In this document: piece by piece, positions 38,930 through 63,409 of the stretch
How positions within the stretch are numbered: position 1 is the stretch's first letter
Layout of the letters: each line of letters begins with the position of its first letter
Virus record (IMG/VR): IMGVR_UViG_3300030333_002703
Span: 46,062-110,061 of that record
Strand: one strand, 5' to 3'
DNA from: a virus
DNA: 64,000 nucleotides
Made by a program: the position numbers and the translations under genes
The notes under the pieces: generated by a model
The model's input: the letters and a program-made list of their open reading frames with translations, nothing else
What the model was told of the DNA's origin: nothing
The model's database searches: none

Positions 38930-39880
38930 CTAGTTCACTCCTTTATTTTTTGTATCCTTTAGTTTCGCTACGAAGTAGTCGTAGTATGCATCATCCCCTG
39001 CGGGCCATGTATGCACACGTTCTACGAACTCCCCCCACGTTACCAAAAAGGAATAGTATTGGTCAGGCGTCAAGCCCAACGAATATACATTGTCTCTCAA
39101 TTGCTTCATCACATACAATCTTGGGAGACCTTTGGCTGCGACCTTTCGCAACTCGGTAGATAGTGATTGCCATTCACCCGCCGCAATTGATAGTGCGGGG
39201 TCAGCAAAGTCAGCCTGTTCAATCAACAGACGTTCTTCCAATGCTTCATCATTTTGAGGCAACGATTGTAAGATGTCTATTGCACTACGCAAGTCACCAT
39301 TACAGGTCTGATTTAGATGTTTGAAATGTTCATTCCAAGATTGTGGTAATGATTCTTGGTCAGATATGTAACAGAATAATTCATCTGCTGCATCGTCAGT
39401 TGCACGACTAAATCTATATGTCATACAACGTGACTTGAGTGCATCGGTAATGGCTGACTCATCATTGGCTGTTAGAATGAACAGCGTTTGGTCAGTGCAT
39501 TGCTCCATCGTATTTCTCATTGCTTCCTGCGCTTGCTTGGTCAGACCATCGGCCTCATCAAACAAGATTACTTTACGTGCTGTACCCATGCCGCCCTGTT
39601 GTGCAATCATCTTGACCTGATTCCTAACGAAATCTATTCCTCGGTCATCAGATGCATTGAATGTTACGTAATTGATGGGGTCGAACCATTCACCAAGCAT
39701 ATGTCGTGCCACTACACCGGCTGCTGTTGTCTTGCCAGTGCCGGGTGGCCCAACCAATAGTATGGCTGCTGGATATTCACCCCGTTCAATCCATTCCTCA
39801 CAATCAGCACGAAAATCTGGGCAACCAACCATTTCATCAATCGTGGTTGGCCGGTATCGTTCTCGCCATTGATTCGTCAT
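38930..39880 (-). CDS. rfcS: Replication factor C small subunit (clamp loader)
   Basis: WRERYRP, GPPGTGKTT, NASDDRGID, FDEAD, SRC, GDLR. Confidence 0.95.
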   Translation of the reverse strand: MTNQWRERYRPTTIDEMVGCPDFRADCEEWIERGEYPAAILLVGPPGTGKTTAAGVVARHMLGEWFDPINYVTFNASDDRGIDFVRNQVKMIAQQGGMGTARKVILFDEADGLTKQAQEAMRNTMEQCTDQTLFILTANDESAITDALKSRCMTYRFSRATDDAADELFCYISDQESLPQSWNEHFKHLNQTCNGDLRSAIDILQSLPQNDEALEERLLIEQADFADPALSIAAGEWQSLSTELRKVAAKGLPRLYVMKQLRDNVYSLGLTPDQYYSFLVTWGEFVERVHTWPAGDDAYYDYFVAKLKDTKNKGVN

Positions 39881-40268
39881 CATCAATGGTGATTATTGAG
39901 GAGGATATAAACGACCCATCATCAATTGCGGTCACTAAACGCAGCACGTCGTCGTGTTTCCACCGTCTGGGATACGATTTGAGGAGATGTTGCATTCGTT
40001 CCATTCCATCACGGTCATGTACCAATTCACGTATGGGCCATAACAAGTCTATGATTTGTTGTATGCCATCGTTGTTCTGTATGCGCCGTGTGGATATACC
40101 ATGCCGCGATTCCATCCATTGCATAAACAGTGGTTCGTTGCGCCGTGTGATAGTGACACCTCGGTTCACTTGGTATCCAATGGGTGTCTTTGGTGCGAAG
40201 TACACATAGATATGGAAACGTGCTTCGCGGGCTAACCAACCCAACATGATTGAATCTACGTTGTACAA
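39837..40268 (-). CDS. Single-motif LAGLIDADG-like DNA-binding protein/endonuclease
   Basis: N-terminal LGWLAREARFHI...GYQV...VTITR resembles the LAGLIDADG helix plus beta saddle. GGTGA SD before TTG. Confidence 0.5.
   Translation of the reverse strand: MYNVDSIMLGWLAREARFHIYVYFAPKTPIGYQVNRGVTITRRNEPLFMQWMESRHGISTRRIQNNDGIQQIIDLLWPIRELVHDRDGMERMQHLLKSYPRRWKHDDVLRLVTAIDDGSFISSSIITIDDDESMARTIPANHD
39880..39911 (-). promoter_or_regulatory. Conserved viral promoter, copy 2
   Basis: TCATCAATGGTGA-N7-GGAGGATATAAA, upstream of RFC. Confidence 0.8.
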
Positions 40269-40314
40269 ATAATATCACCATTCATCCATACCATTACACA
40301 TACTGTATTGCTTA

Positions 40315-40339
40315 ATATGATACTCAATACTATTGATAC
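40315..40339. repeat. 25-bp site, copy A
   Basis: ATATGATACTCAATACTATTGATAC, 22/25 identical to 63385-63409 and to the reverse complement of 63284-63308. Confidence 0.75.
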
Positions 40340-41715
40340 TACCCCATAATTGATAGCACTTCACTCAACTGTGCTGTGTCATTGAAACCTAGCCTACTAT
40401 CCAACCCAATAATTGTAGGGCTATCCAAATGATAGTTGCCGTCATGTATCTTGACACCCACTGCAGTAACCCATACGATTGCCCCTACATCATCCACAGA
40501 TACCCATCTACTATCTAGTCGTGGTGCTAGTCGTGGTGCATTTCGTATGTTCAATGCCACATCATCGGGACACATCATCTCTGCAATGTAGGTGGTAGTA
40601 TGTCCATCCAGTGCTGCTAATTTGATACGAATGTTACTACCACTCAATTGTAGATGTGTGATGAGTAGTGGTAACTTCAATGCCTGTTGTTGTAAGATGT
40701 ATCCCCCAATGAAATCATCATCATAGTATGGGGCATCGGCTAGCAGTCGCACGGTTTGGTCAGGTCTTACAGACCTAAGAACCTCTCGTAATTTCGCCAT
40801 TGTGTCAATTTGCCGCGCGGGTGAGGCCTTCATTACCTTATAATGCTCGGCCAAGTAAGATTGACGCGAAGTGTATGTTTCTTTCCACAATGCTTCGCTT
40901 CCATGTACTAGGACATCTGTGATTAGTACGGTTGCGGGGTCATAGTCATCAGAACACTCGATTTCAAAGATAGATGGAGTATGGTCACTTTCCCAAGATT
41001 GGACTAATTCACCAGACCTAGTAAATATGAGAGCATCACTACCTGTGTAGTGAAGGAATAACCGAGAACTACCTACTAGGTCAATATAGGTAGTTTCGTA
41101 AGGTAGCGCTACCTTGTTCCATCGAAGATATTTGGGAACAGGTACAATTGGCTCTCCGGGCCGCATTTCGCGTTTTACCGGCAAATCGCCTCTAACCGCT
41201 CTTTCGATAACTTCCAAAAATGGCAAATATGCGCTAGATTGGCGTAAAGTAGCAGTATCGTAAATTGTGAACTGTGCCAATGCACGTAGCATATGGCGTT
41301 TGCTGATTGGGGGTGATTCACCCAATGCAACCTGCCAGAACAGCGTGGCCTCGTCGTATGATAGAGAATCTACGATGTCGCCTAATTCGCGCTGGTACAG
41401 CGCGTCTAGATTGTGAAAAGCGTCATCAACCGACCAGTCACTATCATCGTTATCAGATAGCGATGCAATCAGTGGAACGATGGGTTGCCCATCAACAAGG
41501 GCAATCCATTCCTCTGCGTGTACTCCTAGATATGATGGGACACGAGATATGAACCAAGTGCCATTGATTCGTGGTTCATCATCGAACCACAACATGGCGG
41601 CTTCCATCCAGTCTTCATTTGACTGAATGAAGTCCTTGATGACATCGTATTTGATGTGCCATCTCTCGTCACTCCGTAGGAGTGTCGCTATTGCTGACGC
41701 CTTCCATAGTCGCAT
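40339..41715 (-). CDS. ATP-dependent DNA ligase-like protein with degenerate active site
   Basis: RLFLH...IFTRSG and TDVLVHG..L...Y..RQ.YL match the ligase adenylation domain, with a C-terminal OB-like region. No KxDG found. Confidence 0.65.
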   Translation of the reverse strand: MRLWKASAIATLLRSDERWHIKYDVIKDFIQSNEDWMEAAMLWFDDEPRINGTWFISRVPSYLGVHAEEWIALVDGQPIVPLIASLSDNDDSDWSVDDAFHNLDALYQRELGDIVDSLSYDEATLFWQVALGESPPISKRHMLRALAQFTIYDTATLRQSSAYLPFLEVIERAVRGDLPVKREMRPGEPIVPVPKYLRWNKVALPYETTYIDLVGSSRLFLHYTGSDALIFTRSGELVQSWESDHTPSIFEIECSDDYDPATVLITDVLVHGSEALWKETYTSRQSYLAEHYKVMKASPARQIDTMAKLREVLRSVRPDQTVRLLADAPYYDDDFIGGYILQQQALKLPLLITHLQLSGSNIRIKLAALDGHTTTYIAEMMCPDDVALNIRNAPRLAPRLDSRWVSVDDVGAIVWVTAVGVKIHDGNYHLDSPTIIGLDSRLGFNDTAQLSEVLSIMG

Positions 41716-42115
41716 CCTGCGGTCCTCTAAATGGGAGGTCTGCAGGGTCGCATATCAATACTTCGCATATCATCTTGGTATAGGGGTAACACCACTGGTG
41801 TGGTTCAGGTCTGGTTTTTTGACCAAACAGTTTGTCACTCAAATCTGATGTGGCGCGTCGTGAGATAGGTGCGCCTAGTGCATTGGCTGTAATGTAGAAA
41901 CATTCCACAGCCAACTTGTGCGGTGCGCGGTGTGTAGGGTTGGGTGGTTTGGAAATCTCATGGTGTAGTTCCATAGCCTTCTTGGCTATGAAATCTGCTC
42001 GCCCTTCGTCATCTACCATGTGGTGAACCATGTATCCAACTAGGTCATTGTAGGTATCAAATTTACCATACAGTTTGCGCCAATCGTAATCATCGTAGTG
42101 GTTGTAGTCACTCAT
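41669..42115 (-). CDS. Single cyclin-repeat TFB-like protein
   Basis: KKAMELHHEI...RAPHKLAVECFYITA...ISRRATSD aligns by eye with TFB repeat 2 AKAMEFVDEI...KGPVGIAASSIYIAG...RTQREVSE. Confidence 0.55.
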   Translation of the reverse strand: MSDYNHYDDYDWRKLYGKFDTYNDLVGYMVHHMVDDEGRADFIAKKAMELHHEISKPPNPTHRAPHKLAVECFYITANALGAPISRRATSDLSDKLFGQKTRPEPHQWCYPYTKMICEVLICDPADLPFRGPQDATMEGVSNSDTPTE

Positions 42116-42578
42116 TGTAATACCCCACTGGTAGCACTGCACATTCAGGGCATGGTCCTGTATATTGTTCAACAAGAACTTCCCCATCATCATCTAACAT
42201 GAACCCATCAGCAATCCATCCTATGTTGTCACATAGGTCACAATCAACATCTTTTCGTTCAATACCCTTTGGTAATCGTTCACCTGTTCGGAAGTTGGGA
42301 TTGCCTGATTCATCGGTAAGGTCTGGATACCTATTTGGATGAAAGTCAATTGGGTTGTTTGGGTGGTTATGGTATCGCATCCTATCTCGGACTGAATCTT
42401 CCTTTGGGAGATTTGGATACGACTGGGCGTGAGGATTGGGTATGGGTAGCCTACACTCATCACACGCGACTGTTTCAGGTGGATTGGGTGGCCCCACACA
42501 TGGCTCATCAGGATGGTATAGACCATCCCACCAGAAGTGGTTCTGTCTTGCCCCACAATGAGGACATTCAATTATCAT
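42108..42578 (-). CDS. Zn-finger protein
   Basis: CPHC, CDEC, CDLC and CPEC pairs. Confidence 0.6.
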   Translation of the reverse strand: MIIECPHCGARQNHFWWDGLYHPDEPCVGPPNPPETVACDECRLPIPNPHAQSYPNLPKEDSVRDRMRYHNHPNNPIDFHPNRYPDLTDESGNPNFRTGERLPKGIERKDVDCDLCDNIGWIADGFMLDDDGEVLVEQYTGPCPECAVLPVGYYNE

Positions 42579-42675
42579 AGATACACCCACACAAGAAACG
42601 CACAAGTTAAGCCCATAAGTGCTCCTGTGATAACACCTTTCATGTATTCCCACTGAATCTCATCTTCATCATATG

Positions 42676-42891
42676 TCACTCGTTCCACTCCTCTTCAATC
42701 TCATCAATCCATTTGAGAATGTGGTCACAATCAATGGCATATTTACGACTATACAACTCATAGTAGTCACGTGCGACCTCACAACTCGTATCTTCACACA
42801 ACATTTCAATGTCGTCTCTCTTGAACTCATCCATACCAGATTGTGAAACCCAACACGCTAGTCGTGTCATATCTCTATAGTGTGACATCAC
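42676..42891 (-). CDS. Hypothetical protein
   Basis: Coupled ORF in the early array. Confidence 0.55.
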   Translation of the reverse strand: MMSHYRDMTRLACWVSQSGMDEFKRDDIEMLCEDTSCEVARDYYELYSRKYAIDCDHILKWIDEIEEEWNE

Positions 42892-43154
42892 TCATCACCT
42901 ACAAAGTCTGTTGTCTCGGTCAAGATGTCAAGTATTGCATTCTTGACCTGCTCGGCTTGTTCTAGTGTCAATCGTACACCACGTTTAGATGGTCGCCCAG
43001 AGTTCGACCATACTCGGATGTCAATTTCGTTTTTGTTGCTATCGTCATGGAACTTGATACGGTCCACCCGTATGCTAAAGTTATCTGACCCTGACCCTTT
43101 CACCGGAATGGTGGCATGGGTGATATTTTCTTGCTCGCTATAATCCTTACTCAT
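42888..43154 (-). CDS. PC4-like ssDNA-binding/transcription cofactor
   Basis: IDIRVW...PSKRGVRLTLEQ is the PC4/YdbC signature. Confidence 0.8.
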   Translation of the reverse strand: MSKDYSEQENITHATIPVKGSGSDNFSIRVDRIKFHDDSNKNEIDIRVWSNSGRPSKRGVRLTLEQAEQVKNAILDILTETTDFVGDE

Positions 43155-43425
43155 TGTTTTTAGCCTCCTTTTCTTTGCGCTTCTTCAGCGTATTGGCGTT
43201 AGCGAAGCCGTCTCGACCTTGTGTATATCGGCTCATATCCGAGATACCGGGTGGTGCAGGTGGCTCCTCGACCTTCCCCCATTGTGGGCATACTTCTGCC
43301 CACTGTTGTCCTGCTTTGTATGATGTGTTGCCGACACGGTGACGGTTGCCTAGGTCTGCTGATTTCCAGACCCAACCGTACCCACCGGGGCATTGGTCAC
43401 AACATAGTGTTTCTTTATTTTCCAT
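43147..43425 (-). CDS. Hypothetical protein
   Basis: 92 aa, GGAGG SD, CDQC...C. Confidence 0.55.
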   Translation of the reverse strand: MENKETLCCDQCPGGYGWVWKSADLGNRHRVGNTSYKAGQQWAEVCPQWGKVEEPPAPPGISDMSRYTQGRDGFANANTLKKRKEKEAKNNE

Positions 43426-43427
43426 AT

Positions 43428-43619
43428 TTATTCCTCCGCTTCTACTCTTTCTTTTGTACCTAGTTTGTACACATATGTTGGTCTATCTATGACCCGCATA
43501 TAGCCACAATGGATTACCTGCCCATTGATGTAAATGTTGTGTGAATGAGAAGATGTTCTTTTCTTCATCCCACATCCAGAACATTGCCTAAGCGCCATCC
43601 GGTCTGCACTACGTGACAT
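43428..43619 (-). CDS. Small Zn-finger protein
   Basis: CSGC...H...HCG, TAATG coupling. Confidence 0.5.
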   Translation of the reverse strand: MSRSADRMALRQCSGCGMKKRTSSHSHNIYINGQVIHCGYMRVIDRPTYVYKLGTKERVEAEE

Positions 43620-44014
43620 TACGAACCCCACTCCTTGAGTGACCGCTGACGGTTCACATCATCGTAGATTTCGTCAATGATTGCTTGTGCTTCGGACTGG
43701 AACGCACCTCCTAGATTCATTATGCTTGATGTACTGATTGGCTTTGATTTAACCACATCATGTATCTCATCCTCCGTGATGAGTCCATCTTCAATGGCCT
43801 CGGCGGGTGTTCGGGTCACTGCCGCCGTGCTTTTTCTCAACACTAGTGTGTCACCATCGAATGCGTCGATGCAATCCTGACAGATGGGTAACGACAATGC
43901 AAACTTGAAGTCTGGGTCTTTGGGCCAATTGGGGTCAGATGGTGCGCCGCACCAATTCACTGATGCAGTGTGTGGCCCCTTGGTGATGTGTATGACCTTT
44001 GGTAAGTCCGACAC
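43619..44014 (-). CDS. Hypothetical protein with SIMNLGG and a C-terminal PIP-like motif
   Basis: H...WCG...CQDC zinc motif, ends RQRSLKEWGS. Confidence 0.6.
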   Translation of the reverse strand: MSDLPKVIHITKGPHTASVNWCGAPSDPNWPKDPDFKFALSLPICQDCIDAFDGDTLVLRKSTAAVTRTPAEAIEDGLITEDEIHDVVKSKPISTSSIMNLGGAFQSEAQAIIDEIYDDVNRQRSLKEWGS

Positions 44015-44239
44015 TCATTCACCCGGCCTGTGCTTCTCACGCTTGCTTAGCATATTCTCCAACACCTTGAGTATGTTCGCACTCGCTGTCTTGAATCGCT
44101 TCTCGGCGTGTTCACAATCGAACACCCCCAAGTTACGTGCAAGGTCGTCTAGACCTTCAAACTTCATGTATCCATTCTCACCGTTGATGAGATAGTTTAG
44201 TATCTCCCACTCGGCGTGTCCTACTGATTTTGCTTTCAT
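44015..44239 (-). CDS. Hypothetical protein
   Basis: 74 aa, GGAGG SD. Confidence 0.55.
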   Translation of the reverse strand: MKAKSVGHAEWEILNYLINGENGYMKFEGLDDLARNLGVFDCEHAEKRFKTASANILKVLENMLSKREKHRPGE

Positions 44240-44241
44240 GT

Positions 44242-44331
44242 TTATGCCTCCTTATATTCCCAGAACTCCCAGATGGGTTCTCCGGTTTCCTCGTCAATGG
44301 GGCCGCGTAGATGGCTGAATAGTTTAGCCAT
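44242..44331 (-). CDS. 29-aa microprotein
   Basis: MAKLFSHLRGPIDEETGEPIWEFWEYKEA exactly fills the gap. Confidence 0.4.
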   Translation of the reverse strand: MAKLFSHLRGPIDEETGEPIWEFWEYKEA

Positions 44332-45391
44332 CTAGCAGCACCCCACGTAATTGATTGAGTGTAGTTTCACCGTCACAGTATGCGACGATTGCTGCTTCAA
44401 TTTCATTGAGTCGCGCCATCAAGTCATCACGGTCTTTTTCAGCCCGTTTAACTCGCTCGTGTGCTTCCTCTATACCACTTTCGCGGGCTGCGGGTATGTA
44501 CTGGACTCCATCAATCCACACACCTTCAGTTTCAGGCCACAACGTCTTGTATTCAGGTTCCGGTGTTGGTTCTTCCATCAATTCATCCACTGCTTCTACA
44601 ATGTCTGGTTCATCAAGACCGACCACAACCTCATTTGTGAATGTTGGTGGTTCCTCCGATGTCAGAATGGTAAGTTCACCCTTGTGTTTGAGGTCTTGCA
44701 GACGCTTGATGAAATCACCTGATGTTTCATCATCCTCTCTCTCAATCCCCAACTCTTTGGCTGTCGCTCTAAGCGCTGTGCGCTCTTTATGTTGAGCGAT
44801 TCTGGAACGTCGGAATTGCATTTGTGGTTGTGCCTGATTCCGTTCTTTACCTTTCTCTACCTCTTGTTCCCATTTGATGTCTGACTTCTCTACATGAACT
44901 GCATCATCCGGTGCATGATTCTTACAGTACCACTTACCATCTTCAGTTCGATGTGAGATGTATAGAGTGGATGCGTCATTATGACCAACCTTACATCGCT
45001 CACCATTTTTTGTAGTACCATGACATTGACCACGGCTCTCAAGCCGTCGCATAGACACAAGTTGTGTTTGCCAGTATCCTGAATTGTTCACCAATGCAAA
45101 ATTGGTTGGCTTACCAGTCGTCACCACTTGTAGTGCGCCGTGTCCAAGTAGAAGTTGAATGGCCTTGCGTACTTGGTCGTAACCAACATCAATGCCATCT
45201 GCCATCTGCTGTTGTGTAGCACAGTGGGCTTTGAAGCCCAGTTGTGGCACATGGACAAATGGTCGTTTGTCGAACATGAATCTGAAAATCTGTTCAGCGC
45301 GTCTATGTGTCATACCTTTACACTTATCCATTTCTTCTTCAGTGAGTGGTCGATAGATACTGTCTTTCCCATCCGTCGGACCCTTACTCAT
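44324..45391 (-). CDS. Winged-HTH plus Zn-finger protein
   Basis: TQQQMADGIDVGYDQVRKAIQLLLGHGAL HTH, CHGTTKNGERC...YCKNH Zn finger. Confidence 0.65.
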   Translation of the reverse strand: MSKGPTDGKDSIYRPLTEEEMDKCKGMTHRRAEQIFRFMFDKRPFVHVPQLGFKAHCATQQQMADGIDVGYDQVRKAIQLLLGHGALQVVTTGKPTNFALVNNSGYWQTQLVSMRRLESRGQCHGTTKNGERCKVGHNDASTLYISHRTEDGKWYCKNHAPDDAVHVEKSDIKWEQEVEKGKERNQAQPQMQFRRSRIAQHKERTALRATAKELGIEREDDETSGDFIKRLQDLKHKGELTILTSEEPPTFTNEVVVGLDEPDIVEAVDELMEEPTPEPEYKTLWPETEGVWIDGVQYIPAARESGIEEAHERVKRAEKDRDDLMARLNEIEAAIVAYCDGETTLNQLRGVLLDG

Positions 45392-45395
45392 AGTA

Positions 45396-45899
45396 TCACA
45401 CCCGTCGCTGTTCTAGTGCAACAATAGCGGCTCGCATTTGATTACCGCTAATTTCACCATCCATGTATGACTCAATGGCTGATACAAGATAGAAGATTTC
45501 TTCTTCCAGCATCATAACGCGCTCTGCCAACTTCGCTGGGAACCCCGCGAACATCGTTGTTGATGTCGCCTTGCTGAAGTCACTGTTGGGGAATACCTGT
45601 GTGGTTAATTCACCAATAGATTGTTCTTCATGGGGTTCCACTGGTTCATCCGTTGGGAATGGGAAAACAGGGAACAGACGTGCGCCACGTCTATTGCCAG
45701 CCTTCTCTACCAGTCCGTCTTCGATGAGACATCTCTCGGCAGTTTCACGGTATCCGTTTGGAACACCGAGGGCTTCGTTGTAAAAGCCCAATCGCTCACC
45801 GGGTGTCTCTCTAACGATGTTTAGAAGTTTCATAGCGCGCTGTCGCACTGCCTTCCGTCGTCGTCGTCCATTTGCATTTTTAGTTCTTACTTCGTGCAT
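45396..45899 (-). CDS. Winged-HTH protein sharing a C-terminal domain with its neighbour
   Basis: IVRETPG...LIEDGLVEKAGNRRGARLF. SD AGGAG before ATG 45899. Confidence 0.6.
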   Translation of the reverse strand: MHEVRTKNANGRRRRKAVRQRAMKLLNIVRETPGERLGFYNEALGVPNGYRETAERCLIEDGLVEKAGNRRGARLFPVFPFPTDEPVEPHEEQSIGELTTQVFPNSDFSKATSTTMFAGFPAKLAERVMMLEEEIFYLVSAIESYMDGEISGNQMRAAIVALEQRRV

Positions 45900-45941
45900 T
45901 TTTATCTCTCCTTTATTTTGTTTGTATCCGTTAGGAATTGG

Positions 45942-45997
45942 TGGGGGGTAGGGTGCGTTGCTTGGGATGCATGACGGTAGTAAATCCCTACCCCCCA
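45942..45997. other. Intergenic stem-loop
   Basis: TGGGGGGTAGGG / CCCTACCCCCCA perfect 12-bp stem. Confidence 0.7.
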
Positions 45998-46005
45998 TGA
46001 ATTGC

Positions 46006-47661
46006 TCATATATTCAAGACCTCACTGGCCTTTGGAATGCTGTTGAGCGCAGACATCCCTTCTTCGTTCACGAATGCCTTCAGGTCATTCAAGTCTGTGG
46101 TTCCAATCTTATCCACACCAGATGATTCTTTGTAATCTCCCACGGTCTGGTATAGTACACCAGTCATGACATTGTGGACTGTGGATAGACGACGGTTGAG
46201 TGTTTCCAACCCAATCGTGCGACCCTTCAAGACAGTCTTGCCATCAGACCATTCTGGCTTGTGTGTGATTGCACCGTTCAATACATTGTAAGCATGGAAC
46301 AGTGTGTTACTCTGGTCACGGTTCACTGCAACCCAATCATTGCTGGGCTTTGTCCAACCATCAAGAGCAAGTCGCCACATATACCCACCAGTCAATTTTT
46401 CACTAACAACCTTGTCATTCTTGATGACCGGCTTCTTGTTGGGCCATCCAATGAGGCCACGTGTCTCACACAGTGTGAGTAGTCGTTCAAACAATTGAAC
46501 ATCCACTGGAAGGTGTTGCATGAACTCCATCTCGACAAGTGAACGCTGTGCATCTACAATCACTGAATTGATGTCACTAGCAAATGCATCCCAATCACGG
46601 TCTTTCATAGCACCCTGCTTGTGTCGAATAGATGCAATGGTTCTGACACCACCCATCACTGCCAAGTTTTGACAGTACACACGTTCTGCTACGGCTTGGA
46701 CAGACAGTGCTTTTGTGCCATCCAGTGAGTTGTTGATGCTGAATCCATATCGGTATAGACCGTCAAGTGATTTGGCGGTATCATTCATCAGATTAAGACT
46801 GATAAATCCGTGACCATTTTCACTCAATCGTTGTCGTGCTTTTTCCCGAGTCTGGGCTGCTTGTGATACATCACAGTCAAGACGCATCTTTGCACCTTCG
46901 TTGTGTGCATAGACACGTGCCTTCCAATCATTCTTAGATGCCATATCCAAGATGGGGTCACACACTGTGGGATATGATAGGGGGAAGTAATCCTTACCGA
47001 CCACACCAAGACACGCACCTTCAGGTCTATCTGATGATGCATATGATGGGTTGAAGATTGCGAAGTGCTTTGCGTTGCCTTTAGCATCAGTCACTGGTGA
47101 GAACGTAGGAGCCATCTCCTCCGATTCTTGATGTGCTGTGAACACCGGCTTCATCACTGGGGTGAATCGCCAATCGTGAGCAATCAAACCTTCACGACCA
47201 CCGGCTAGGATACTGCCATCCCATACCTCATCACTAACTTCCACTGCACCAGCAGTAGTAGGGACTTCATCATCCCAATCTTCATCTCCACCATCATTGT
47301 TCGGTGAGCCACCTAAATCCATGATGCTTGCTTTCTTTGCTTTCTGCATTGCTTTGATGTTGGCTGATGCCACACCCTGTTCTAATGCATCTACCAATTC
47401 GATGTGTTCCGGCTCTACTACGAGCGGTGCTTTGTTGCCACCGAAATGGGCTGATGGGTGATAATCTCCATGCTTCAGGGATGCACTCTCAACAAGGAAT
47501 GCAGATTGCCCATCACTTGTTTTGTGCTGTTGGGCAATTGCTCCTTTTGGAATCCATACTGACCGAGGACCACTGACCGCTTCATAACGAACTTTCGTTT
47601 GTTTGTCGTTGGTTTCCTCAACATGACCGATAACCACAATTTTGGTATTTTCATTTGTCAT
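46006..47661 (-). CDS. DUF932-family protein with N-terminal extension
   Basis: LGVVGKDY, NSLDGT..L...RVYCQN, IRH, TLFHAYN...ITH. Confidence 0.7.
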   Translation of the reverse strand: MTNENTKIVVIGHVEETNDKQTKVRYEAVSGPRSVWIPKGAIAQQHKTSDGQSAFLVESASLKHGDYHPSAHFGGNKAPLVVEPEHIELVDALEQGVASANIKAMQKAKKASIMDLGGSPNNDGGDEDWDDEVPTTAGAVEVSDEVWDGSILAGGREGLIAHDWRFTPVMKPVFTAHQESEEMAPTFSPVTDAKGNAKHFAIFNPSYASSDRPEGACLGVVGKDYFPLSYPTVCDPILDMASKNDWKARVYAHNEGAKMRLDCDVSQAAQTREKARQRLSENGHGFISLNLMNDTAKSLDGLYRYGFSINNSLDGTKALSVQAVAERVYCQNLAVMGGVRTIASIRHKQGAMKDRDWDAFASDINSVIVDAQRSLVEMEFMQHLPVDVQLFERLLTLCETRGLIGWPNKKPVIKNDKVVSEKLTGGYMWRLALDGWTKPSNDWVAVNRDQSNTLFHAYNVLNGAITHKPEWSDGKTVLKGRTIGLETLNRRLSTVHNVMTGVLYQTVGDYKESSGVDKIGTTDLNDLKAFVNEEGMSALNSIPKASEVLNI

Positions 47662-47672
47662 AATGCCATACT

Positions 47673-55358: not shown

Positions 55359-55366
55359 TGTATCAA

Positions 55367-55398
55367 CCACCGTTGGTGGAATGGGAGGAGTATATGAA
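55367..55398 (-). promoter_or_regulatory. Conserved viral promoter, copy 5
   Basis: CCACCGTTGGTGG-AATGGGA-GGAGTATATGAA. Confidence 0.85.
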
Positions 55399-55428
55399 TC
55401 CGGTTCATTTCCATTCGTGTATGTGTAT

Positions 55429-56081: not shown

Positions 56082-56324
56082 TCATTCTTCTTCCTCCTTT
56101 CCATATTTTGCACAGGCCGCATCAATGATGGCCTGTTGTTTGTCAGTATCAAACTGACTGATGTTAAACTCTGTAAACTGTTTGAACTTATTTTCCATGT
56201 ATGCTTGCCGATGACCGGGTTCATCATAGATGTCCTCGATGCCAAACACATCAGCACAAAACTGTTTGAGCGTAGTGTTCCGTGTGTACCAGAACAACCA
56301 GTTCAATTCCTCAACTGTAATCAT
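56082..56324 (-). CDS. Hypothetical protein
   Basis: 80 aa, GGAGG SD. Confidence 0.55.
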   Translation of the reverse strand: MITVEELNWLFWYTRNTTLKQFCADVFGIEDIYDEPGHRQAYMENKFKQFTEFNISQFDTDKQQAIIDAACAKYGKEEEE

Positions 56325-56656
56325 TTGGTCGCCTCCTTGTCATCGTCTTTCTGTTCAAGCCATGCTTGAAACTCCTCATGTATTTTGTTCATCTCACGGA
56401 TGGCTTCTAGTTCATTCCTCACGATGTCAGCGATAATCCTAATCACTGTTGCCTCGTGTGGTTGGTCACGTTCAGCAAAGTCAATTGCCACGTCACCGTT
56501 TTCCAATAGGTCACAAATCTCTAGCATATAGCGTTCAAAGTCACCTAAACTTTCTTCATATTCATTCATTTTCATTCTCTCCTTATATTTGTTGTATTCA
56601 TTGATGTCCACTGACATCTTAATGCCGGTCTTGGTCATAGGAATACACCTACCCAT
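56321..56656 (-). CDS. Hypothetical protein
   Basis: Helical ORF, start uncertain. Confidence 0.5.
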   Translation of the reverse strand: MGRCIPMTKTGIKMSVDINEYNKYKERMKMNEYEESLGDFERYMLEICDLLENGDVAIDFAERDQPHEATVIRIIADIVRNELEAIREMNKIHEEFQAWLEQKDDDKEATK

Positions 56657-56733
56657 TTCAAAAATCGAATCAATCGACCCGGCATTCCCTCTGTATCATA
56701 TCCATTCCATTCATCATCATCCATTGTGTTCAA

Positions 56734-56768
56734 CCACCAACGGTGGTGTAACGTGAGGAGGATATAAA
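56734..56768 (-). promoter_or_regulatory. Conserved viral promoter, copy 6
   Basis: CCACCAACGGTGG-N10-GGAGGATATAAA. Confidence 0.8.
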
Positions 56769-56777
56769 AGACCGAAA

Positions 56778-57026
56778 TTATTCGTCACGGCCCAATACTT
56801 CATCACTGGTTACGTGTAAATCTCCTAACACCCAGCGTAGCGCGTTAATCACGCCTTGAAGTGCTTTGTAATTTCTCATGTGCTTTATCTTCAACTTCTT
56901 ACTCTTGGCTCGTTGCATGAGCATGAAGTGCTTATTCTGCTCACGTTCAGCCGCATCTAGCATATTTAGAATATCATTCCAGTCCTTATCGTAGGCAAAG
57001 TTCTCACTATCTTGGTGGTCATTCAT
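56778..57026 (-). CDS. Hypothetical helical protein
   Basis: 82 aa, RNYKALQGVINALRWVLG, GGAG SD. Confidence 0.6.
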   Translation of the reverse strand: MNDHQDSENFAYDKDWNDILNMLDAAEREQNKHFMLMQRAKSKKLKIKHMRNYKALQGVINALRWVLGDLHVTSDEVLGRDE

Positions 57027-57140
57027 TCTTATCTCTCCTATTACGTCTGTACATCAGGTATAGCACAGTTGTCCAGAAGCCTAGTTCAAGTAGGCTCGCA
57101 ATTGCGCCTCCCATCAACAAGGTTGATGATAGTTCCCCTG

Positions 57141-57521
57141 TCATGCTCGCCACACCTGCGGTAGATATTCACCTGTCGTAGGTTGGTAGTGCTGTAGTAT
57201 GAGTGTCAGGTATGCTCCAGTATCTTCCACATACTGCTTCACTCTTGCTGTGTGTTGCATATCATCCCATTCCCTAATGAATGCTATAGTCATCGGGGTG
57301 AACCCCTCAACGTATAGTTCCATGTGTGGTTCCCAATGCTCATAGAGCCACGCCTGACATATGCTACGCATCCAACTGTAGTCAGACATCTTATCATCAG
57401 GTATTGTGTTGGCACGTTGCTGTCCCTTTGCATTCGTCTTCCTGATGAAGTTAACCCCGTCTTCAGGGAACACTATGTGTTCCGCAGGTGATGGGTGTCT
57501 TCCAAACAATGCTATCTTCAT
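57141..57521 (-). CDS. Hypothetical protein
   Basis: 126 aa, GGAGG SD, coupled. Confidence 0.6.
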   Translation of the reverse strand: MKIALFGRHPSPAEHIVFPEDGVNFIRKTNAKGQQRANTIPDDKMSDYSWMRSICQAWLYEHWEPHMELYVEGFTPMTIAFIREWDDMQHTARVKQYVEDTGAYLTLILQHYQPTTGEYLPQVWRA

Positions 57522-57706
57522 GCCTTAATCCTCCTTCGTGTGTATAGTCGTAATGCAAGGCGGGGTGGGTCAGAACTTAAGTTCACAATTTTGAACTCAT
57601 AGTCATCACCGAAGTGCCGCTCTAGCATACCCTTCATGATGTTGTGTCCTACACGAGCATGAGGACCAAGGCCTGTATCCATTTTCTCCCAACCTTCCAA
57701 ATCCAT
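57518..57706 (-). CDS. Hypothetical protein
   Basis: 62 aa, coupled at both ends. Confidence 0.5.
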   Translation of the reverse strand: MDLEGWEKMDTGLGPHARVGHNIMKGMLERHFGDDYEFKIVNLSSDPPRLALRLYTRRRIKA

Positions 57707-58260
57707 TAGGCCTCACCTACGTGTATAGCATAAGTGGTTCGACCCACTTGGTATGTGTAGTAGTCCATCTCTAGTTGTTGTCCGACCCAATCCCAATCAA
57801 TCGTGCTGGTAATCCAACTAGGCAATGCGTTAAGTTCTGTGTAGTAAATGTCCTCGCACATCTCCTGCGCCCACTCACTACGACAGTCGTATGATACCAT
57901 AGCATCTCTCACCTGCATGATGCGGTCAGCATCATAGCATCCACCACTAAATGAATGCAGCAAGGCTGCAGCATATACGTACTCCTCATCCTCATCAACC
58001 AATCGCATGAGTTCAATCAAGTCCCAGATGTCTGGGTTTTCACCCAGCACTAGACCATGCATATCATAGTCATGGATGGCCCACTCATCGTGGTCATCAT
58101 GTGGGCATAGGATTCTCTTGCCATCGTCATCGGACCAGTCATGGTCCCATGCTACTTCTAATTCATCGGCGGTCATCCACTGACCATTCAACTTCCCTTC
58201 GACATAGCATGACAGACACGCTACATACACTCTACTCTCTTTCATTTCATTCTTCATCAT
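57706..58260 (-). CDS. ardA: ArdA-family antirestriction (DNA mimic) protein
   Basis: RVYVACLSCY..GKLNGQW, EWAIHDYD, LGE, IDW..VG..LEMD, acidic composition. Confidence 0.85.
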   Translation of the reverse strand: MMKNEMKESRVYVACLSCYVEGKLNGQWMTADELEVAWDHDWSDDDGKRILCPHDDHDEWAIHDYDMHGLVLGENPDIWDLIELMRLVDEDEEYVYAAALLHSFSGGCYDADRIMQVRDAMVSYDCRSEWAQEMCEDIYYTELNALPSWITSTIDWDWVGQQLEMDYYTYQVGRTTYAIHVGEA

Positions 58261-58471
58261 CGTTCATCACCTCTACAAAATAGTCAACTTGTTTTACTGG
58301 GCATTCTTTTTCACACGCATAACGCATGATAACCATATCAGTTAAATGCATACACCAGTCAACCAATCTCATTGGCGCATCACATACACTACAACAGACG
58401 AATGGTTCGCCTCTCGATAGTATGTAATGTGCATTGTCTAGTATCTCAACCTCTTCATGTTCTTCCATCAT
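58247..58471 (-). CDS. Small Zn-finger protein
   Basis: CSVC...CEKEC. Confidence 0.5.
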   Translation of the reverse strand: MMEEHEEVEILDNAHYILSRGEPFVCCSVCDAPMRLVDWCMHLTDMVIMRYACEKECPVKQVDYFVEVMNDDEE

Positions 58472-58693
58472 TCATTCCTCCTTTACGTTTGGTTTCACTA
58501 TACATTCGTACACTGTCTCATAGGTTGGTACGTCGTCGTCATCCACATACCATACTTCAGTTCCATTCAAGTCAGCGCCTCCGCTATCCAATTGATAGAA
58601 TCCCCATACATCGTTGCCGTTGTTGTCAGGGTCTTGACCATACACAACTTCGACTACCATTTCATCATAGTAGTATACTGCTCTTCGCATCAT
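58472..58693 (-). CDS. Small acidic protein
   Basis: 73 aa, GGAGG SD. Confidence 0.5.
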   Translation of the reverse strand: MMRRAVYYYDEMVVEVVYGQDPDNNGNDVWGFYQLDSGGADLNGTEVWYVDDDDVPTYETVYECIVKPNVKEE

Positions 58694-58848
58694 TCATTCC
58701 TCCTGTATTGTTTTCCTCAAGAACTTCAACACTATAGTTGCTGTTGGTATCCTTCCCGATTGTTCAATGATATTATCCAACGCCCACTTGATTTCTTTTT
58801 CCGTGTAACTATAGTTCGGGTTCAATTCGGGCCATTCATATTTAGCCA

Positions 58849-61218
58849 TCATTCATTCCTCCATCCATTGTCGGCCTTGAGTCGTGCCAGTAGGTCAGCG
58901 ACAATCGCTCCTTCGGCACGGCGTTCATCGTCACCATCCATCGCCGCCTTGACGACAGCGGCCTTGGCCTTGACCACTGCATCGAACTTGGCATCAATAG
59001 AGTTCGGTACGGATAGGAATACCTGACGACAGAAGGATGACTGTTGTCCGATACGTCGAATCCGATGTGCTGCTTGTGATTCCCAACCGGGAACCCACTC
59101 ACGCTCCACGAATACTACAGTGTCTGCATTGGTCAGTGTGATACCTTCCTTCGCCGCCACTGTTGCACATAGTAGTATGTCGATGTCACCGTTTTGGAAC
59201 TCATCAACAATTCGTGTGCGTTCTTGTGCTGATACTCCACCACGAATGATACCATAAGTCACATCAGTTAGATGTGGTATCATGGCCTCCATCACATCTC
59301 TATGATGAGTGAACACCACAATCTGTTTGCCAGTTTGTTGCACGTAATCAAGAACATAGTTCGCTGCGAATGTCGTCTTCAAACGACCACACTCATGGCG
59401 TAGGTCTGTCAGCATATTGAGAACGAATCCCGGTGGCATGGGTGGATGGTCAAGGTAGTACTCATACTGTTCCTGCCATTGGTGCAAACATTCCTGATAG
59501 GAATGCCATGCGTTGTCATCCAATTCCACTGGAACATACTGTTCCACAAGGTCTGGCATCTCCGGCATCACCTCGGTTAGCAACCGACGAACCATGAAGT
59601 CACGCGCTCGCTCATTCAATTCAGATAGATTGGATGCACCATCAGTCTTCCAACCGAATCGTGTTTGCTTTGCATCACAGTATCGCTTAGCATACGACCA
59701 CCAATTACTGAATTGGTGTGGTCGCAACAGATTCAACTGTGTAAAGAACTCCGCAGGTCGATTGGTGATTGGTGTTCCCGTCAAACAAATCAGTCCTTTG
59801 GACTGCTGTGCCACAGCAATACACGCCTCGGTTCGTTGTGCCTTGGGGTTCTTGATGTAGTGTGATTCATCCATGATGACAAGATTGTATCCTTCGGATA
59901 ACAGTTCGTCTTGTTTCTTCGCCATCAAATCATAATTGATTACAGTGTAATCAGCACCTTCCAATTCGGACTTGCCATTCTTGACCACACATACAGATGC
60001 ATCTGGAACCCACTTGTTAATCTCATTGGCCCAATTGTATTTGACATTGGCAGGTGCTACCACCAACACTGGCCACTGTTCAGGATGCAACACACTGTAT
60101 GCTATCGCTTGGATTGTCTTACCAATCCCCATCTCATCACCAATCATGGCACGACCATTCGCTGCTTCACAGAATGCTACGCCCACATACTGGAATGGAT
60201 ACAGTGACAAACCATCAGGGAACTTCCCATCCAATCGTTCAACGATTGAGTCCACCATTTCCTCCGGTGCTGATGCTGCTTGGGACAGGGTAACACGTTC
60301 TATAGACATATCCAATTCACTGGCAATCTCTGGAATCCGTAGGATTGCATCGGACAATTCCTTGCAGTGTGGTCGAATGAAATCAGCAACACGAGCCGCT
60401 TGAGATAGTGGCACACGCCATACCTTCTGTTCCATATCGAACTTCCAATTATCAACCTGCTTGATAGCCGCACGGATGTCAGCATTGTTATTTCGGAACG
60501 GCCAATGCAGTTCCACTGCATCAATGTTCAGTGTTGCTTTGTATCGTGAGTCAATCTTGGCCTCGGTATCATTTGTAAGTGTTGTCTTACTTGTGTCATC
60601 AACAATAGATGCGATGGTGTCATCCAACATCAAGGTGTGAGTGAAGTCAATGTCATACTCCTTGAGTATGGCAACGGTTTGTTCGATGACCTCCGGTTTG
60701 TCTTGGATGCTCCATGCACCAGACAAGTCATCGCCACCTGTCCATCCGCTAATCTTATCCTGCGAATCGAACTTGACCGCAGGGAATCCCAAGGTCTCGC
60801 GCAACTTGTTGTTTGCCTCTTGGTCAAACCAACCAAGCAAAGCGATGCGAGGTCCGAAGTTATCTTCGTATCGAATCACTGACAACTTCAATGCTTGTCG
60901 TGTAGCCCACATGATTTTGGCATTCACCTTGAACCCATTGGCATCACCAATGGATGGTAGTTGTGTCTCCGCGAACTTGTATAGAATGTAGGCGGCCTGC
61001 TTCGCATCCTCCTTTGTAAGCACATCCTTACTTGCCAAGTCGTTGCCTTGTTCCCATGTATCTTTACACCATCCGGTGTCATCATGCTGGGTAGGCGCAC
61101 CAAGACCTGACATCACTTTGCATAGTGTATGCAACTGGTCATTCGTCAATGGTGCGACAACCTCATCTTCAATATCTTTATCATTTGTATTCATGTTTAT
61201 CCAACTCATTTCTTTCAC
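58849..61218 (-). CDS. SNF2-family (HARP/SMARCAL1-like) helicase
   Basis: LYPFQ, GDEMGIGKT, MDESH, LTGTP, EGITLT, QAAHRIRRIGQ. Confidence 0.92.
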   Translation of the reverse strand: MKEMSWINMNTNDKDIEDEVVAPLTNDQLHTLCKVMSGLGAPTQHDDTGWCKDTWEQGNDLASKDVLTKEDAKQAAYILYKFAETQLPSIGDANGFKVNAKIMWATRQALKLSVIRYEDNFGPRIALLGWFDQEANNKLRETLGFPAVKFDSQDKISGWTGGDDLSGAWSIQDKPEVIEQTVAILKEYDIDFTHTLMLDDTIASIVDDTSKTTLTNDTEAKIDSRYKATLNIDAVELHWPFRNNNADIRAAIKQVDNWKFDMEQKVWRVPLSQAARVADFIRPHCKELSDAILRIPEIASELDMSIERVTLSQAASAPEEMVDSIVERLDGKFPDGLSLYPFQYVGVAFCEAANGRAMIGDEMGIGKTIQAIAYSVLHPEQWPVLVVAPANVKYNWANEINKWVPDASVCVVKNGKSELEGADYTVINYDLMAKKQDELLSEGYNLVIMDESHYIKNPKAQRTEACIAVAQQSKGLICLTGTPITNRPAEFFTQLNLLRPHQFSNWWSYAKRYCDAKQTRFGWKTDGASNLSELNERARDFMVRRLLTEVMPEMPDLVEQYVPVELDDNAWHSYQECLHQWQEQYEYYLDHPPMPPGFVLNMLTDLRHECGRLKTTFAANYVLDYVQQTGKQIVVFTHHRDVMEAMIPHLTDVTYGIIRGGVSAQERTRIVDEFQNGDIDILLCATVAAKEGITLTNADTVVFVEREWVPGWESQAAHRIRRIGQQSSFCRQVFLSVPNSIDAKFDAVVKAKAAVVKAAMDGDDERRAEGAIVADLLARLKADNGWRNE

Positions 61219-61526
61219 GCTCCTAGTAATGACATAATTCCACCAGTTCTGGTGGGTGGCTTGTCATCGGTAGCCACTGGTGCTGTCCAATCCATGATTG
61301 ATACAGACTTTTTCTTTGGTGCAACAACCTTTGGTTGTGGTACGAACCCAACCTCATCCAATGTCAATTGAATCATACAGTCATTCCAACTGCAACGCTG
61401 ACTTGTGCAATTCACTAGCACTTCGTATCGACCACGAGTCCAATTGTGGTTGGCTCCCCAATCTTGAAGGATACGATTGACGGTTTTCGGCCCACCGCAT
61501 CCTGAACATTTCGGTATATCAAACAT
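61215..61526 (-). CDS. Zn-finger protein with SIMDW motif
   Basis: CSGC...CTSQRC. ATG 61526 sits at the predicted leaderless start of a conserved promoter. Confidence 0.6.
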   Translation of the reverse strand: MFDIPKCSGCGGPKTVNRILQDWGANHNWTRGRYEVLVNCTSQRCSWNDCMIQLTLDEVGFVPQPKVVAPKKKSVSIMDWTAPVATDDKPPTRTGGIMSLLGA

Positions 61527-61557
61527 CAACGAAGTTGATAATGAAGGAGTATATGAA
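61526..61557 (-). promoter_or_regulatory. Conserved viral promoter, copy 7
   Basis: TCAACGAAGTTGA-N7-GGAGTATATGAA. Confidence 0.8.
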
Positions 61558-61689
61558 TCGGCCATCATTTCAACACCACCACTTGATGTATGCACATGGA
61601 ACAGTCATAGATTATGTTGTCATCATACCATGATACGGGAGACATCTCACCCCCACATTCGCACACCAAAAGTTGGACTCTTCGCGCAC

Positions 61690-61956
61690 TCATTCAACCA
61701 CCTCCAACTTATCCACTAATGCAATCTCAATGTAATCAGCCAATCCATCACCGCAGTATTCTATGTCAGACTTACGGTAACATTGAATCACATAGTCTTG
61801 AAGGTGATAATTCCATGCGACAATACCTTTCCACAAACGTGGGTTATCGTAGAAACGATACTGAACTATGTCACCCTCTTTGATACCCCATGCTCGCATG
61901 GCTGCTCTTGTTAATCCTGTTTGAACTTCCAATGCTTTGCGACCCATCTTACTCAT
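61690..61956 (-). CDS. Hypothetical protein (SH3/KOW-like beta pattern)
   Basis: IKEGDIVQY...KGIV. Confidence 0.5.
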   Translation of the reverse strand: MSKMGRKALEVQTGLTRAAMRAWGIKEGDIVQYRFYDNPRLWKGIVAWNYHLQDYVIQCYRKSDIEYCGDGLADYIEIALVDKLEVVE

Positions 61957-62058
61957 CTCCTAAACACCTCTTGCATATTCCAATTGTATAGTATGGTTCA
62001 AGTTGAAAGTGAATGTATTGACGACACTTCCTACAACCAGTATGTGAATCATACTGAT

Positions 62059-62385
62059 TCATTTCCATCCACCTCTTAGTGCATTGTTCTCAATGATTAA
62101 CCGTTCCAATGCCTTGCCATACTGTTCCATAGCATATGCAATTGTGCCTAGTCCCACCATGTTATCGAGGGATACTGGTCCTTGCCAGTGCAAATGCGGT
62201 TCATCACTTACTAGTTGCACCACGTTGGCCCATTGTTCGATTTCATCGACCACCATGCTAAAGTGTGGTACACCTGTCTGCATATTCAATTCGTCATCCA
62301 CAGTATGTGGGATACCATTGTCATGTTCCCATAGAACTGTTTCGCTTAGGTCTTGCTGTTCGTTTGTTTCGTTTTCGTTTGTCAT
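62059..62385 (-). CDS. Hypothetical protein
   Basis: ATGA-coupled, GGAG SD. Confidence 0.55.
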   Translation of the reverse strand: MTNENETNEQQDLSETVLWEHDNGIPHTVDDELNMQTGVPHFSMVVDEIEQWANVVQLVSDEPHLHWQGPVSLDNMVGLGTIAYAMEQYGKALERLIIENNALRGGWK

Positions 62386-62609
62386 ATATTCAACTCCTTT
62401 TCTTTCTTTGCCCATTCTTCTACTGCGGGTCCACCGTCTTCAAACTCCTCCAATGTTAATCCAACAGGCAAACCCTTTCTCCAACACCAAAGTACATGAT
62501 GGCGTTGTCTAATCTTTAGACCGGGTTGGCATTCGGAGCATTCACAATGCTCAACTGATTGCTCAACCCATTCATCACTAAGTTCTTCGGCCCAAATCTC
62601 ATCATCCAT
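62382..62609 (-). CDS. Small Cys/His protein
   Basis: HCECSEC...C. Confidence 0.5.
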   Translation of the reverse strand: MDDEIWAEELSDEWVEQSVEHCECSECQPGLKIRQRHHVLWCWRKGLPVGLTLEEFEDGGPAVEEWAKKEKELNI

Positions 62610-62611
62610 AT

Positions 62612-62842
62612 TTATTCCTCCTCATCTACGATGTTTACTTGTTCTGGGGTCAGGTCATCGTGGTCCCAATCAGTATCCCAGAAATCTTCAGCCATACATA
62701 CAGCACGAACTACGTCCATTTTGTTACCTGTTCGTTGGTATTCATCCCATACTTTCTTAGGAATAGTAGCACCAATCTGTTGGTATGCATATGAACTAAC
62801 ATCTATAGACACGGCAACCATGTCGTTGTTATCCTTACTCAT
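62612..62842 (-). CDS. Small acidic protein
   Basis: 76 aa, TAATG coupling. Confidence 0.55.
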   Translation of the reverse strand: MSKDNNDMVAVSIDVSSYAYQQIGATIPKKVWDEYQRTGNKMDVVRAVCMAEDFWDTDWDHDDLTPEQVNIVDEEE

Positions 62843-63213
62843 TATTCATCACCACCTAGGTCCATGATGGAACGGGGTGCATTGGAAATGCTACCACCAA
62901 GGTCCATGATAGAACGAACAGTTTCGGTAGCAATGTCTGGCTTGATGTCAAACAAATGTCGCCATTTCATGTAGGCAGGTCGTTGCTGTTCATTTACCAA
63001 GTTTCCATTATGTGTGTGTTCCTTCCAAAGGAAGATGTTGTGTCGGTTTTCACCACCACGGCCACCAGTTCTTTTGCATCCTTGCCAAAGGTATCTGGTG
63101 ATGTTCTGTCCGATATGAATGATGGGTTCACCATCACAGTCATTCCAGCAATCACATGGGGGTCTGTCGGCTTTCGGTTTTCGTTGTCGGTATCGTTGTT
63201 GTTTTCGGGGCAT
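62842..63213 (-). CDS. First gene of the minus arm, carries tandem SIMDLGG motifs
   Basis: ATG 63213 follows a conserved promoter. Ends RSIMDLGGSISNAPRSIMDLGGDE. Confidence 0.65.
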   Translation of the reverse strand: MPRKQQRYRQRKPKADRPPCDCWNDCDGEPIIHIGQNITRYLWQGCKRTGGRGGENRHNIFLWKEHTHNGNLVNEQQRPAYMKWRHLFDIKPDIATETVRSIMDLGGSISNAPRSIMDLGGDE

Positions 63214-63225
63214 TGTAATCACAAT

Positions 63226-63257
63226 CCAACATTGTTGGAAATTAAGGAGGATATAAA
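63226..63257 (-). promoter_or_regulatory. Conserved viral promoter, copy 8
   Basis: CCAACATTGTTGG-N7-GGAGGATATAAA. Confidence 0.85.
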
Positions 63258-63283
63258 CGGCGGGTCGATTTTGGGGGGTTGTC

Positions 63284-63409
63284 GTATCAATAATATCGGG
63301 TATCATATTGACTAATATCTTGTATCATAATCATTAGTATCCCTCGCGTGTATATCCATTGGTCAATGACTGTAATATCTATCCATATGATACTTAATAC
63401 AATTAATAC
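63284..63409. repeat. Inverted pair of 25-bp sites plus a partial tandem copy, candidate replication origin
   Basis: 63284-63308 and 63385-63409 are inverted. TAATATCnnGTATCATA occurs at 63291 and 63313. AT-rich and non-coding. Confidence 0.6.

Follow-up and report, generated by a model that had tools for sequence, protein, structure and literature searches.

Convergent GTAT boxes and a LAGLIDADG-fold gene in group A magroviruses: a possible combined origin and regulatory docking site

In a 64,000-nt stretch of the IMG/VR record IMGVR_UViG_3300030333_002703 (positions 46,062-110,061, one strand; hereafter the window, whose positions serve as coordinates throughout), we describe a 25-bp site, the GTAT box, that stands alone upstream of a gene for a protein with a predicted LAGLIDADG fold and recurs as a facing pair beside an early operon. 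The GTAT box is a real, oriented element of group A magroviruses whose number, orientation and synteny are conserved among relatives, and it is probably docked upon by a protein. Our favoured reading, which remains tentative and to which we give a probability of roughly 0.4, is that the boxes may form a combined origin and regulatory docking site for a viral factor. The group A magroviruses, uncultured viruses infecting marine group II archaea, have the thermosome and SNF2 as hallmarks (PMC5434244), and the window virus is assigned to them by its predicted thermosome, SNF2, PolB, RFC and viral transcription factor B (TFB) genes. Magroviruses are among the most abundant archaeal viruses of the surface ocean and encode MCM and most of a replisome, a near-complete set of archaeal type, while the start of their replication and the timing of their genes lack description; both origin and initiator are undescribed in PMC5434244. 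The searched literature says nothing on GTAT sites, on the non-coding region discussed below or on an origin of magroviruses, and the box is a newly described cis-element. Related loci and genomes that were compared carry L and G labels, respectively.

The window holds one solo box and one pair, termed pair 1, with the following parts:

40315-40339, minus strand: solo GTAT box (copy A); its minus-strand reading is GTAT...CATAT, and the TTG start of the LAGLIDADG-fold gene follows after 46 nt.
63284-63308, plus strand: GTAT box of pair 1, arm on the early-operon side, 26 bp upstream of the early-operon TATA box.
63309-63384, no strand: spacer of pair 1, 76 bp at 34% GC, with a partial box at 63313-63334 and a TATA-like CGTGTATATCC at 63347-63357 (plus strand) that is kept in L036.
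63385-63409, minus strand: GTAT box of pair 1, arm on the non-coding side, unchanged in three related strains.

An earlier note on this DNA had pointed to a 25-mer shared by a putative origin and the upstream region of a LAGLIDADG-like open reading frame (ORF), and its description of the sites proved accurate in nearly all respects. Read on the plus strand, the 25-mer at 40315-40339 recurs at 63284-63308 (minus strand) and 63385-63409 (plus strand) with 3 mismatches each, these being the only two further matches at up to 3 mismatches, and the chance expectation for such recurrences was 0 in 100 dinucleotide shuffles. When scored with a weight matrix built from other lineages only, the three window copies reach 32-34 bits vs 14 bits for the best shuffle. 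Copy A sits, as described, in a 70-bp gap between the stop of the ORF at 40339-41715 (minus strand), whose stop codon it overlaps by 1 nt, and the TTG start at 40268. The two distal copies are inverted (I1) and enclose 76 bp, the AT-rich core having 34% GC vs 46% for the whole window, and the partial third copy is genuine, with 63291-63312 and 63313-63334 agreeing at 77% (D7). The internal dyads that had been noticed are present in two copies, but they are no trait of the family, since the 31 distinct copies collected from relatives, viral contigs and metagenome contigs lack whole-site two-fold symmetry. The consensus of these 31 copies, GTATYRATWRTATYRNGTATCAT, is directional and consists of three RTATYR units, and the best symmetry scores (0.56-0.66) are confined to short sub-centres. 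The box thus differs from the 18-22-bp pseudo-palindrome expected as the target of a LAGLIDADG homodimer.

Related genomes contain five GTAT copies at three syntenic intergenic places, arranged as one solo box and two convergent pairs. In G001, for example, a complete relative of 110 kb, the strong copies number exactly five, namely the solo box, a pair at 97.6 kb and a pair at 108.8 kb, and the same three-locus layout is found in G006 and in the pieces of TARA scaffold 4023 (L036, L040, L053). Pair 2, which lies outside the window, is located ahead of a membrane-protein/GTPase operon, 8-11 nt from a TATA-like element conserved in six lineages; pair 1 lies 8 to 73 bp from the early TATA box, depending on the lineage. 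Orientation is convergent, with the CAT ends inward, in 10/10 pairs, with spacers of 61-111 bp in pair 1 and 26-31 bp in pair 2. The sequences of these spacers are not conserved, yet their GC content is 21-36% in genomes of 44-54% GC, and the inverted arrangement around an AT-rich spacer proposed for the window is therefore one that relatives conserve. At closer range, three related strains, compared through Logan contigs of DNA runs, show 0/25 changes in the right arm, changes at degenerate positions only in the left arm, and 8/76 changes in the spacer. In the window, L002, L004 and G006 the solo box is found 45-48 nt upstream of the ORF start, and in L006 the distance is 34 nt, while the intervening sequence drifts.

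The strict GTAT pattern was found in 185,579 prokaryote genomes only as 13 scattered bacterial singletons and is therefore virus-specific, a search that at this level of strictness ruled out its being a host motif. A search with the viral thermosome turned up no Poseidoniales genome. AT-rich singleton matches to the pattern (L024, L028, L031 and others; GC 0.19-0.37) were dismissed as chance. We also rejected a hairpin or cruciform as the basis of the pairs, because the arms differ at 2-7 of 25 positions without compensation and are non-complementary. Two borderline matches were observed apart from these, one in the window at 27575-27599 (minus strand; 12 bits vs about 14 for the best shuffle), 16 nt upstream of a promoter at 27548, and one in G001 at 61365-61389 (minus strand; 19 bits vs about 17); they may be degenerate sites or chance.

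The gene downstream of the solo box is a second element of interest, and its immediate setting is as follows:

39837-40268, minus strand: LAGLIDADG-fold gene, 143 aa from TTG 40268, with an alternative ATG at 40247.
40274-40279, minus strand: Shine-Dalgarno-like GGTGAT, 5 nt before the TTG start; GGTGAT or GTGAT also in L002, L004, L006 and G006.
38930-39883, minus strand: gene for an RFC-like clamp loader, whose own promoter, TTTATATCCTCC (39900-39911), falls within the 3' end of the LAGLIDADG-fold ORF.
40339-41715, minus strand: upstream neighbour, 458 aa, no Pfam match; Atlas feature matches of 0.93 to DNA-ligase clusters.

Translation most likely starts at TTG 40268. The upstream neighbour is probably an ATP-dependent DNA ligase, the Atlas match being a lead only; a ligase has been placed in the group A replicative block (Philosof 2017). 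The LAGLIDADG-like character claimed for the 143-aa protein is supported at the level of predicted fold. Its AF2 model (pLDDT 80, pTM 0.71) has only LAGLIDADG enzymes among its top Foldseek matches, and VIA aligned 118/121 modelled residues with I-TnaI (Z 10.4, rmsd 2.9) and returned 117 chains at Z of at least 8, every one a LAGLIDADG enzyme. The alpha-beta-beta-alpha-beta-beta-alpha core is present, the second hairpin being a 2-residue bridge in the model. The motif helix, LGWLAREARF, bears a Glu as final helix residue before strand 1, which is the position of the family's catalytic Asp/Glu, and this Glu is invariant in 19 sequences of 38-89% identity, suggesting that catalysis may be retained and that the protein would be an active nuclease, not an inert binder of DNA. 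At the sequence level, searches of Pfam (including PF00961, PF03161 and PF14528) and PHROG gave nothing at E<=0.01, a profile of the family had no match among PDB sequences, and among Atlas neighbours LAGLIDADG_1 or LAGLIDADG_3 is present in just 12-21% of members, which is a lead only. There are 16 homologues in a large protein collection and 17 family representatives of 70-147 aa among 1.84 billion clustered proteins, none tied to canonical families, and this predicted orphan LAGLIDADG-fold family is described here for the first time; the searched literature on group A magroviruses refers to LAGLIDADG homologues only broadly and assigns one to the structural module.

Embedding of the gene in the replication block, which the earlier note had reported, extends well beyond the window: it lies between the ligase-like and RFC genes in 10/10 RFC-bearing relatives. 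It also diverges together with its neighbours and, compared with an 89% relative, has a dN/dS of 0.14, indicating purifying selection. A selfish mobile gene would be sporadic and occupy an intron, an intein or a variable site, and this gene shows no such pattern; from its fixed position, co-divergence and dN/dS it follows that the gene is useful to the virus and is not a roaming homing gene. The expectation that site and ORF travel together held in five lineages, with constant geometry, but it broke down in L008-L012, which keep the ORF without the upstream site; the outcome by which the earlier note would have its proposal refuted has thus in part occurred. There, the ORF abuts the ligase-like gene, its start overlapping the stop of that gene (ATGGAATGA), and no box lies within 10 kb, while high-GC contigs from the same sample retain pair 2 unchanged. 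At the other end of the ORF, the final 25 or so codons coincide with the promoter of RFC and, in a different frame, with its start (39837-39911), residues 115-136 of the ATG-start model have a pLDDT below 50, and this stretch, to judge from the model, is probably outside the fold. The conserved C-terminal tail (..MA..IP..D) was considered as a functional motif and rejected, its conservation arising because the conserved RFC N-terminus is read there in another frame.

Genes point rightward over the first 22.8 kb or so of the window, and leftward from there to 63.3 kb. Products recognised in the leftward block are a polymerase of family B, the RFC-like clamp loader, an SNF2 helicase, a subunit of the thermosome and a DNA methylase, with a weak match to primase, and further an ERCC4 nuclease, a Cas4-like nuclease and the viral TFB (22782-23720, minus strand; TFIIB repeats at E 4e-43 plus a Zn ribbon). 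The viral TFB could set a virus-specific promoter class. Annotated phage records yielded zero DNA and zero protein matches to the region. The rightward part includes a single 6024-aa ORF of 18 kb (1125-19199, plus strand). G001 has, from the strand switch to pair 2, roughly 9 kb of genes pointing rightward (L020 9596-18481) that the window lacks.

Pair 1 separates the early operon from a 600-750-bp non-coding region and has these neighbouring features:

63226-63257, minus strand: early-operon promoter, TTTATATCCTCC at 63246-63257 plus the palindrome CCAACAATGTTGG at 63226-63238, before ATG 63213.
62842-63213, minus strand: first early gene, a small Cys-rich protein with CxC..C..RYLWQGC and two C-terminal SIMDLGG repeats.
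63410-64000, no strand: conserved non-coding region, running off the window, with local hairpins, a 16-bp palindrome and an A8 run.

The non-coding region can be aligned in five lineages (including window 63410-64000, L020 7545-8195, L036, L046 and L039), and loose ends in other strains suggest that in the window virus it extends past base 64000. It contains the conserved blocks CATACTAGTAGGG and GGTCATCATC, hairpins with some compensatory changes, an A8 run near its end (63975-63982; T8 on the minus strand) and the 16-bp palindrome CCAACCATATGGTTGG at 63641-63656, which is invariant in the five lineages and is extended by a 22-bp pseudo-palindrome (63638-63659) with an even centre and 9/11 symmetric positions. 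Rfam identified no family in 63150-64000, only a sub-threshold tRNA-Sec-like match. The region could represent either the origin itself or a structured RNA.

Homologues of the Cys-rich first early gene adjoin pair 1 in L036, G001, L049 and L039, and none does in G006. The protein had no match in Pfam, and its AF2 model (pLDDT 46) was unusable. The SIMDLGG repeats, which in relatives are replaced by PSLFGG-type repeats, look like a short docking motif, and the protein is a rival candidate for the box-binding factor. Additionally, five exact TTTATATCCTCC copies occur on the minus strand (27548, 39900, 47693, 56757 and 63246), approximately 28 nt before start codons, and behind most of them a 13-bp palindrome, CCAMC-N3-GKTGG, covers the start site (47673, 55367, 56734 and 63226; 0.3 expected by chance). 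The two motifs form a second cis-element family, separate from the GTAT box.

From the arrangement of the boxes we infer both that a protein binds them and that they act as origin or operator, and in the reading that we favour both roles may be combined. One virus-encoded, sequence-specific DNA-binding protein would dock on the GTAT boxes, and the facing pairs around easily melted spacers would serve as assembly platforms. Because the pairs sit inside promoter regions, we propose that origin firing or local opening would be coupled to control of the adjacent operon, and the solo box would pass the same signal to the LAGLIDADG-fold gene. A virus with its own MCM-based replisome needs origin-type elements, and inverted sites around an AT-rich element, by which archaeal origins are recognised, occur in all 10 pairs. 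In agreement with the earlier note, which saw no Orc1/Cdc6, the approximately 40 ORFs of the window and G001 that were scanned gave zero matches to Orc1/Cdc6 or Cdc6_C, though simple profile searches are known to miss replication proteins of magroviruses (PMC5434244). The homologue of the non-coding region is the largest intergenic gap of G001, and the global cumulative GC-skew minimum of that genome, at 98112, falls inside this gap beside pair 1.

Several observations weigh against such a combined site. In G001 the skew minimum spreads over a plateau (97.5-99.6 kb) reaching as far as the gene-strand switch at 99.7 kb, 1.5 kb away, and is therefore not independent evidence, and at pair 2 the same genome has no skew inflection. 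The spacer of pair 2, at 26-31 bp, is short for an unwinding element, and the box is unlike what we take to be the consensus of the archaeal origin recognition box (ORB). Moreover, the fixed distance between pair 2 and its TATA-like element fits a plain operator and, together with the operon-head position of all three loci, fits it equally well as it does an origin. The variable distance between pair 1 and the early TATA box suits an operator less well. Origin and initiator roles are accordingly best described as plausible but unproven.

The explanation ranked next holds that the boxes are plain transcriptional operators through which some other regulator of the virus, such as the Cys-rich first early protein or a protein partnering the viral TFB, would time three transcription units, the LAGLIDADG-fold gene being a mere target and replication playing no part. 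All three loci are promoter-proximal, the spacing of pair 2 to its TATA-like element is held in six lineages, and the virus has both a TFB of its own and a conserved Cys-rich protein beside pair 1; the sites of F55 in SSV1, which cover the early promoters plus one more promoter, have a layout that also favours this account. Nonetheless, an asymmetric site of 23-25 bp in strictly convergent pairs with spacers of 26-111 bp is not a usual design for operators, pair 1 stands at anything from 8 to 73 bp from the early TATA box, and the Cys-rich gene is missing beside pair 1 in G006, so that we regard operators alone as somewhat unlikely, behind the combined docking site and ahead of the full mechanism of the earlier note. 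In that mechanism the LAGLIDADG-fold protein itself binds the boxes, acting as initiator at the pairs and repressing its own gene at the solo box. The main argument for it as the binder is that its gene alone has a solo box, at a near-constant 45-48 nt in five lineages; furthermore, the LAGLIDADG fold is a scaffold that reads 18-25 bp, the gene is fixed in the replication block of 10/10 relatives, and both the family (17 representatives in 1.84 billion proteins) and the box are restricted to this virus clade. However, the box has no two-fold symmetry to match a protein with a single domain of about 120 aa, no two-domain form having been found, and the presumed DNA-facing residues in strands 1 and 2 vary widely while the box consensus is constant. 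L008-L012 also keep the ORF fused to the ligase-like gene, boxless within 10 kb, although high-GC contigs of the same sample keep pair 2; the invariant Glu, which suggests retained catalysis, sits poorly with an inert factor; and the 22-bp pseudo-palindrome at 63638-63659 would be a more natural target for a LAGLIDADG homodimer than the box. We therefore consider it doubtful that this protein binds the boxes at all, and improbable that it does so as both initiator and repressor, the initiator role having the standing of a hypothesis.

The same protein may instead be a working nuclease with another target, such as the 22-bp pseudo-palindrome, host DNA, or replication or recombination intermediates, in which case the solo box would only regulate its gene. 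The Glu at the catalytic position in all 19 sequences argues for this, and CCAACCATATGGTTGG, unchanged in five lineages, belongs to a 22-bp form whose even centre and 9/11 symmetric positions correspond to the format of I-CreI-type targets. Neighbouring genes encode nucleases, the ligase-like protein and RFC, and replication roles have been proposed for magrovirus nucleases by Philosof et al. Since a high-GC lineage alters one half of the palindrome, and a nuclease acting elsewhere leaves the boxes themselves unexplained, we hold this account to be rather unlikely, on a par with box binding by the protein. Least probable of these readings is that the facing boxes are crossover sites of an inversion switch, flipping the TATA-bearing spacer between the early operon and the non-coding region. 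Two contigs of metagenome Ga0114908 (L041 1-140 and L049 1-100) are identical over the first 83 nt, spacer plus arm, and have opposite flanks: in one contig the shared stretch continues into the non-coding side, in the other into the early-gene side, which implies opposite orientations of the spacer; a TATA-like block is also conserved inside the spacer of pair 1. Yet this is one pair of short contigs, both beginning within the spacer, where a chimera could arise at a 22-nt perfect inverted repeat. No integrase or invertase family was seen among the scanned ORFs, many of which match no family, a junction search in viral contigs found no further inverted-spacer contig, and the window, L036 and the three strains, to which the comparison is confined by the divergence of spacers in other lineages, all have one orientation. 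The discrepancy between the two contigs may reflect an inversion polymorphism or an assembly chimera.

The GTAT box regulon and the conserved non-coding region are concrete elements that can be tested in vitro without culture of the virus. The LAGLIDADG-fold gene, fixed in place and with its catalytic residue intact, is a candidate for domestication of an endonuclease in a virus, and if its product does bind the boxes, it would represent a new kind of origin or regulatory protein. In the most far-reaching version, a protein of homing-endonuclease fold, captured by an archaeal virus as a replication factor that is site-specific and still catalytic, would recognise the GTAT boxes or the 22-bp palindrome, open, nick or flip pair 1 to fire the origin, stand in for Orc1/Cdc6, and control its own gene through the solo box; we judge this to be a long shot.

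Comparison with characterised systems brings out both sides of the case. In common with I-TnaI, I-Vdi141I, I-CreI and I-MsoI, the protein shares the fold over 118/121 modelled residues (Z 8.8-10.4), and like single-motif LAGLIDADG enzymes it is predicted to comprise one domain of about 120 aa with an acidic residue ending the first helix. Unlike LAGLIDADG homing endonucleases, it has no Pfam sequence match and a very short second beta hairpin in the model, its gene is immobile and syntenic in all relatives, and the repeated site nearby is no pseudo-palindrome. Yeast HO and bacterial WhiA are domesticated, host-serving LAGLIDADG-fold proteins that are vertically inherited, HO being a two-domain, intein-derived enzyme and WhiA having lost the catalytic residues and binding DNA through an added helix-turn-helix domain; to our knowledge, neither is an origin factor. 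Like HO, the viral protein may have remained catalytic, with a programmed site in the genome as its target. Archaeal oriC has inverted ORB elements around a DNA unwinding element, bound by Orc1/Cdc6, and herpesvirus oriS, located in a promoter region, has UL9 boxes inverted around an AT spacer. The GTAT boxes may be likened to both, being asymmetric, approximately 25 bp long and inverted around AT-rich spacers in intergenic control regions, at more than one locus per genome and with one copy near a replication gene; they differ in that no Orc1/Cdc6 or UL9-like gene is recognised beside them and in the short spacer (26-31 bp) of pair 2. Finally, the GTAT boxes resemble the operators of SSV1 F55 and lambda type in the reuse of one site at an early promoter region, a second operon and one further gene, and depart from them in being long and asymmetric and, where paired, always convergent with variable spacing.

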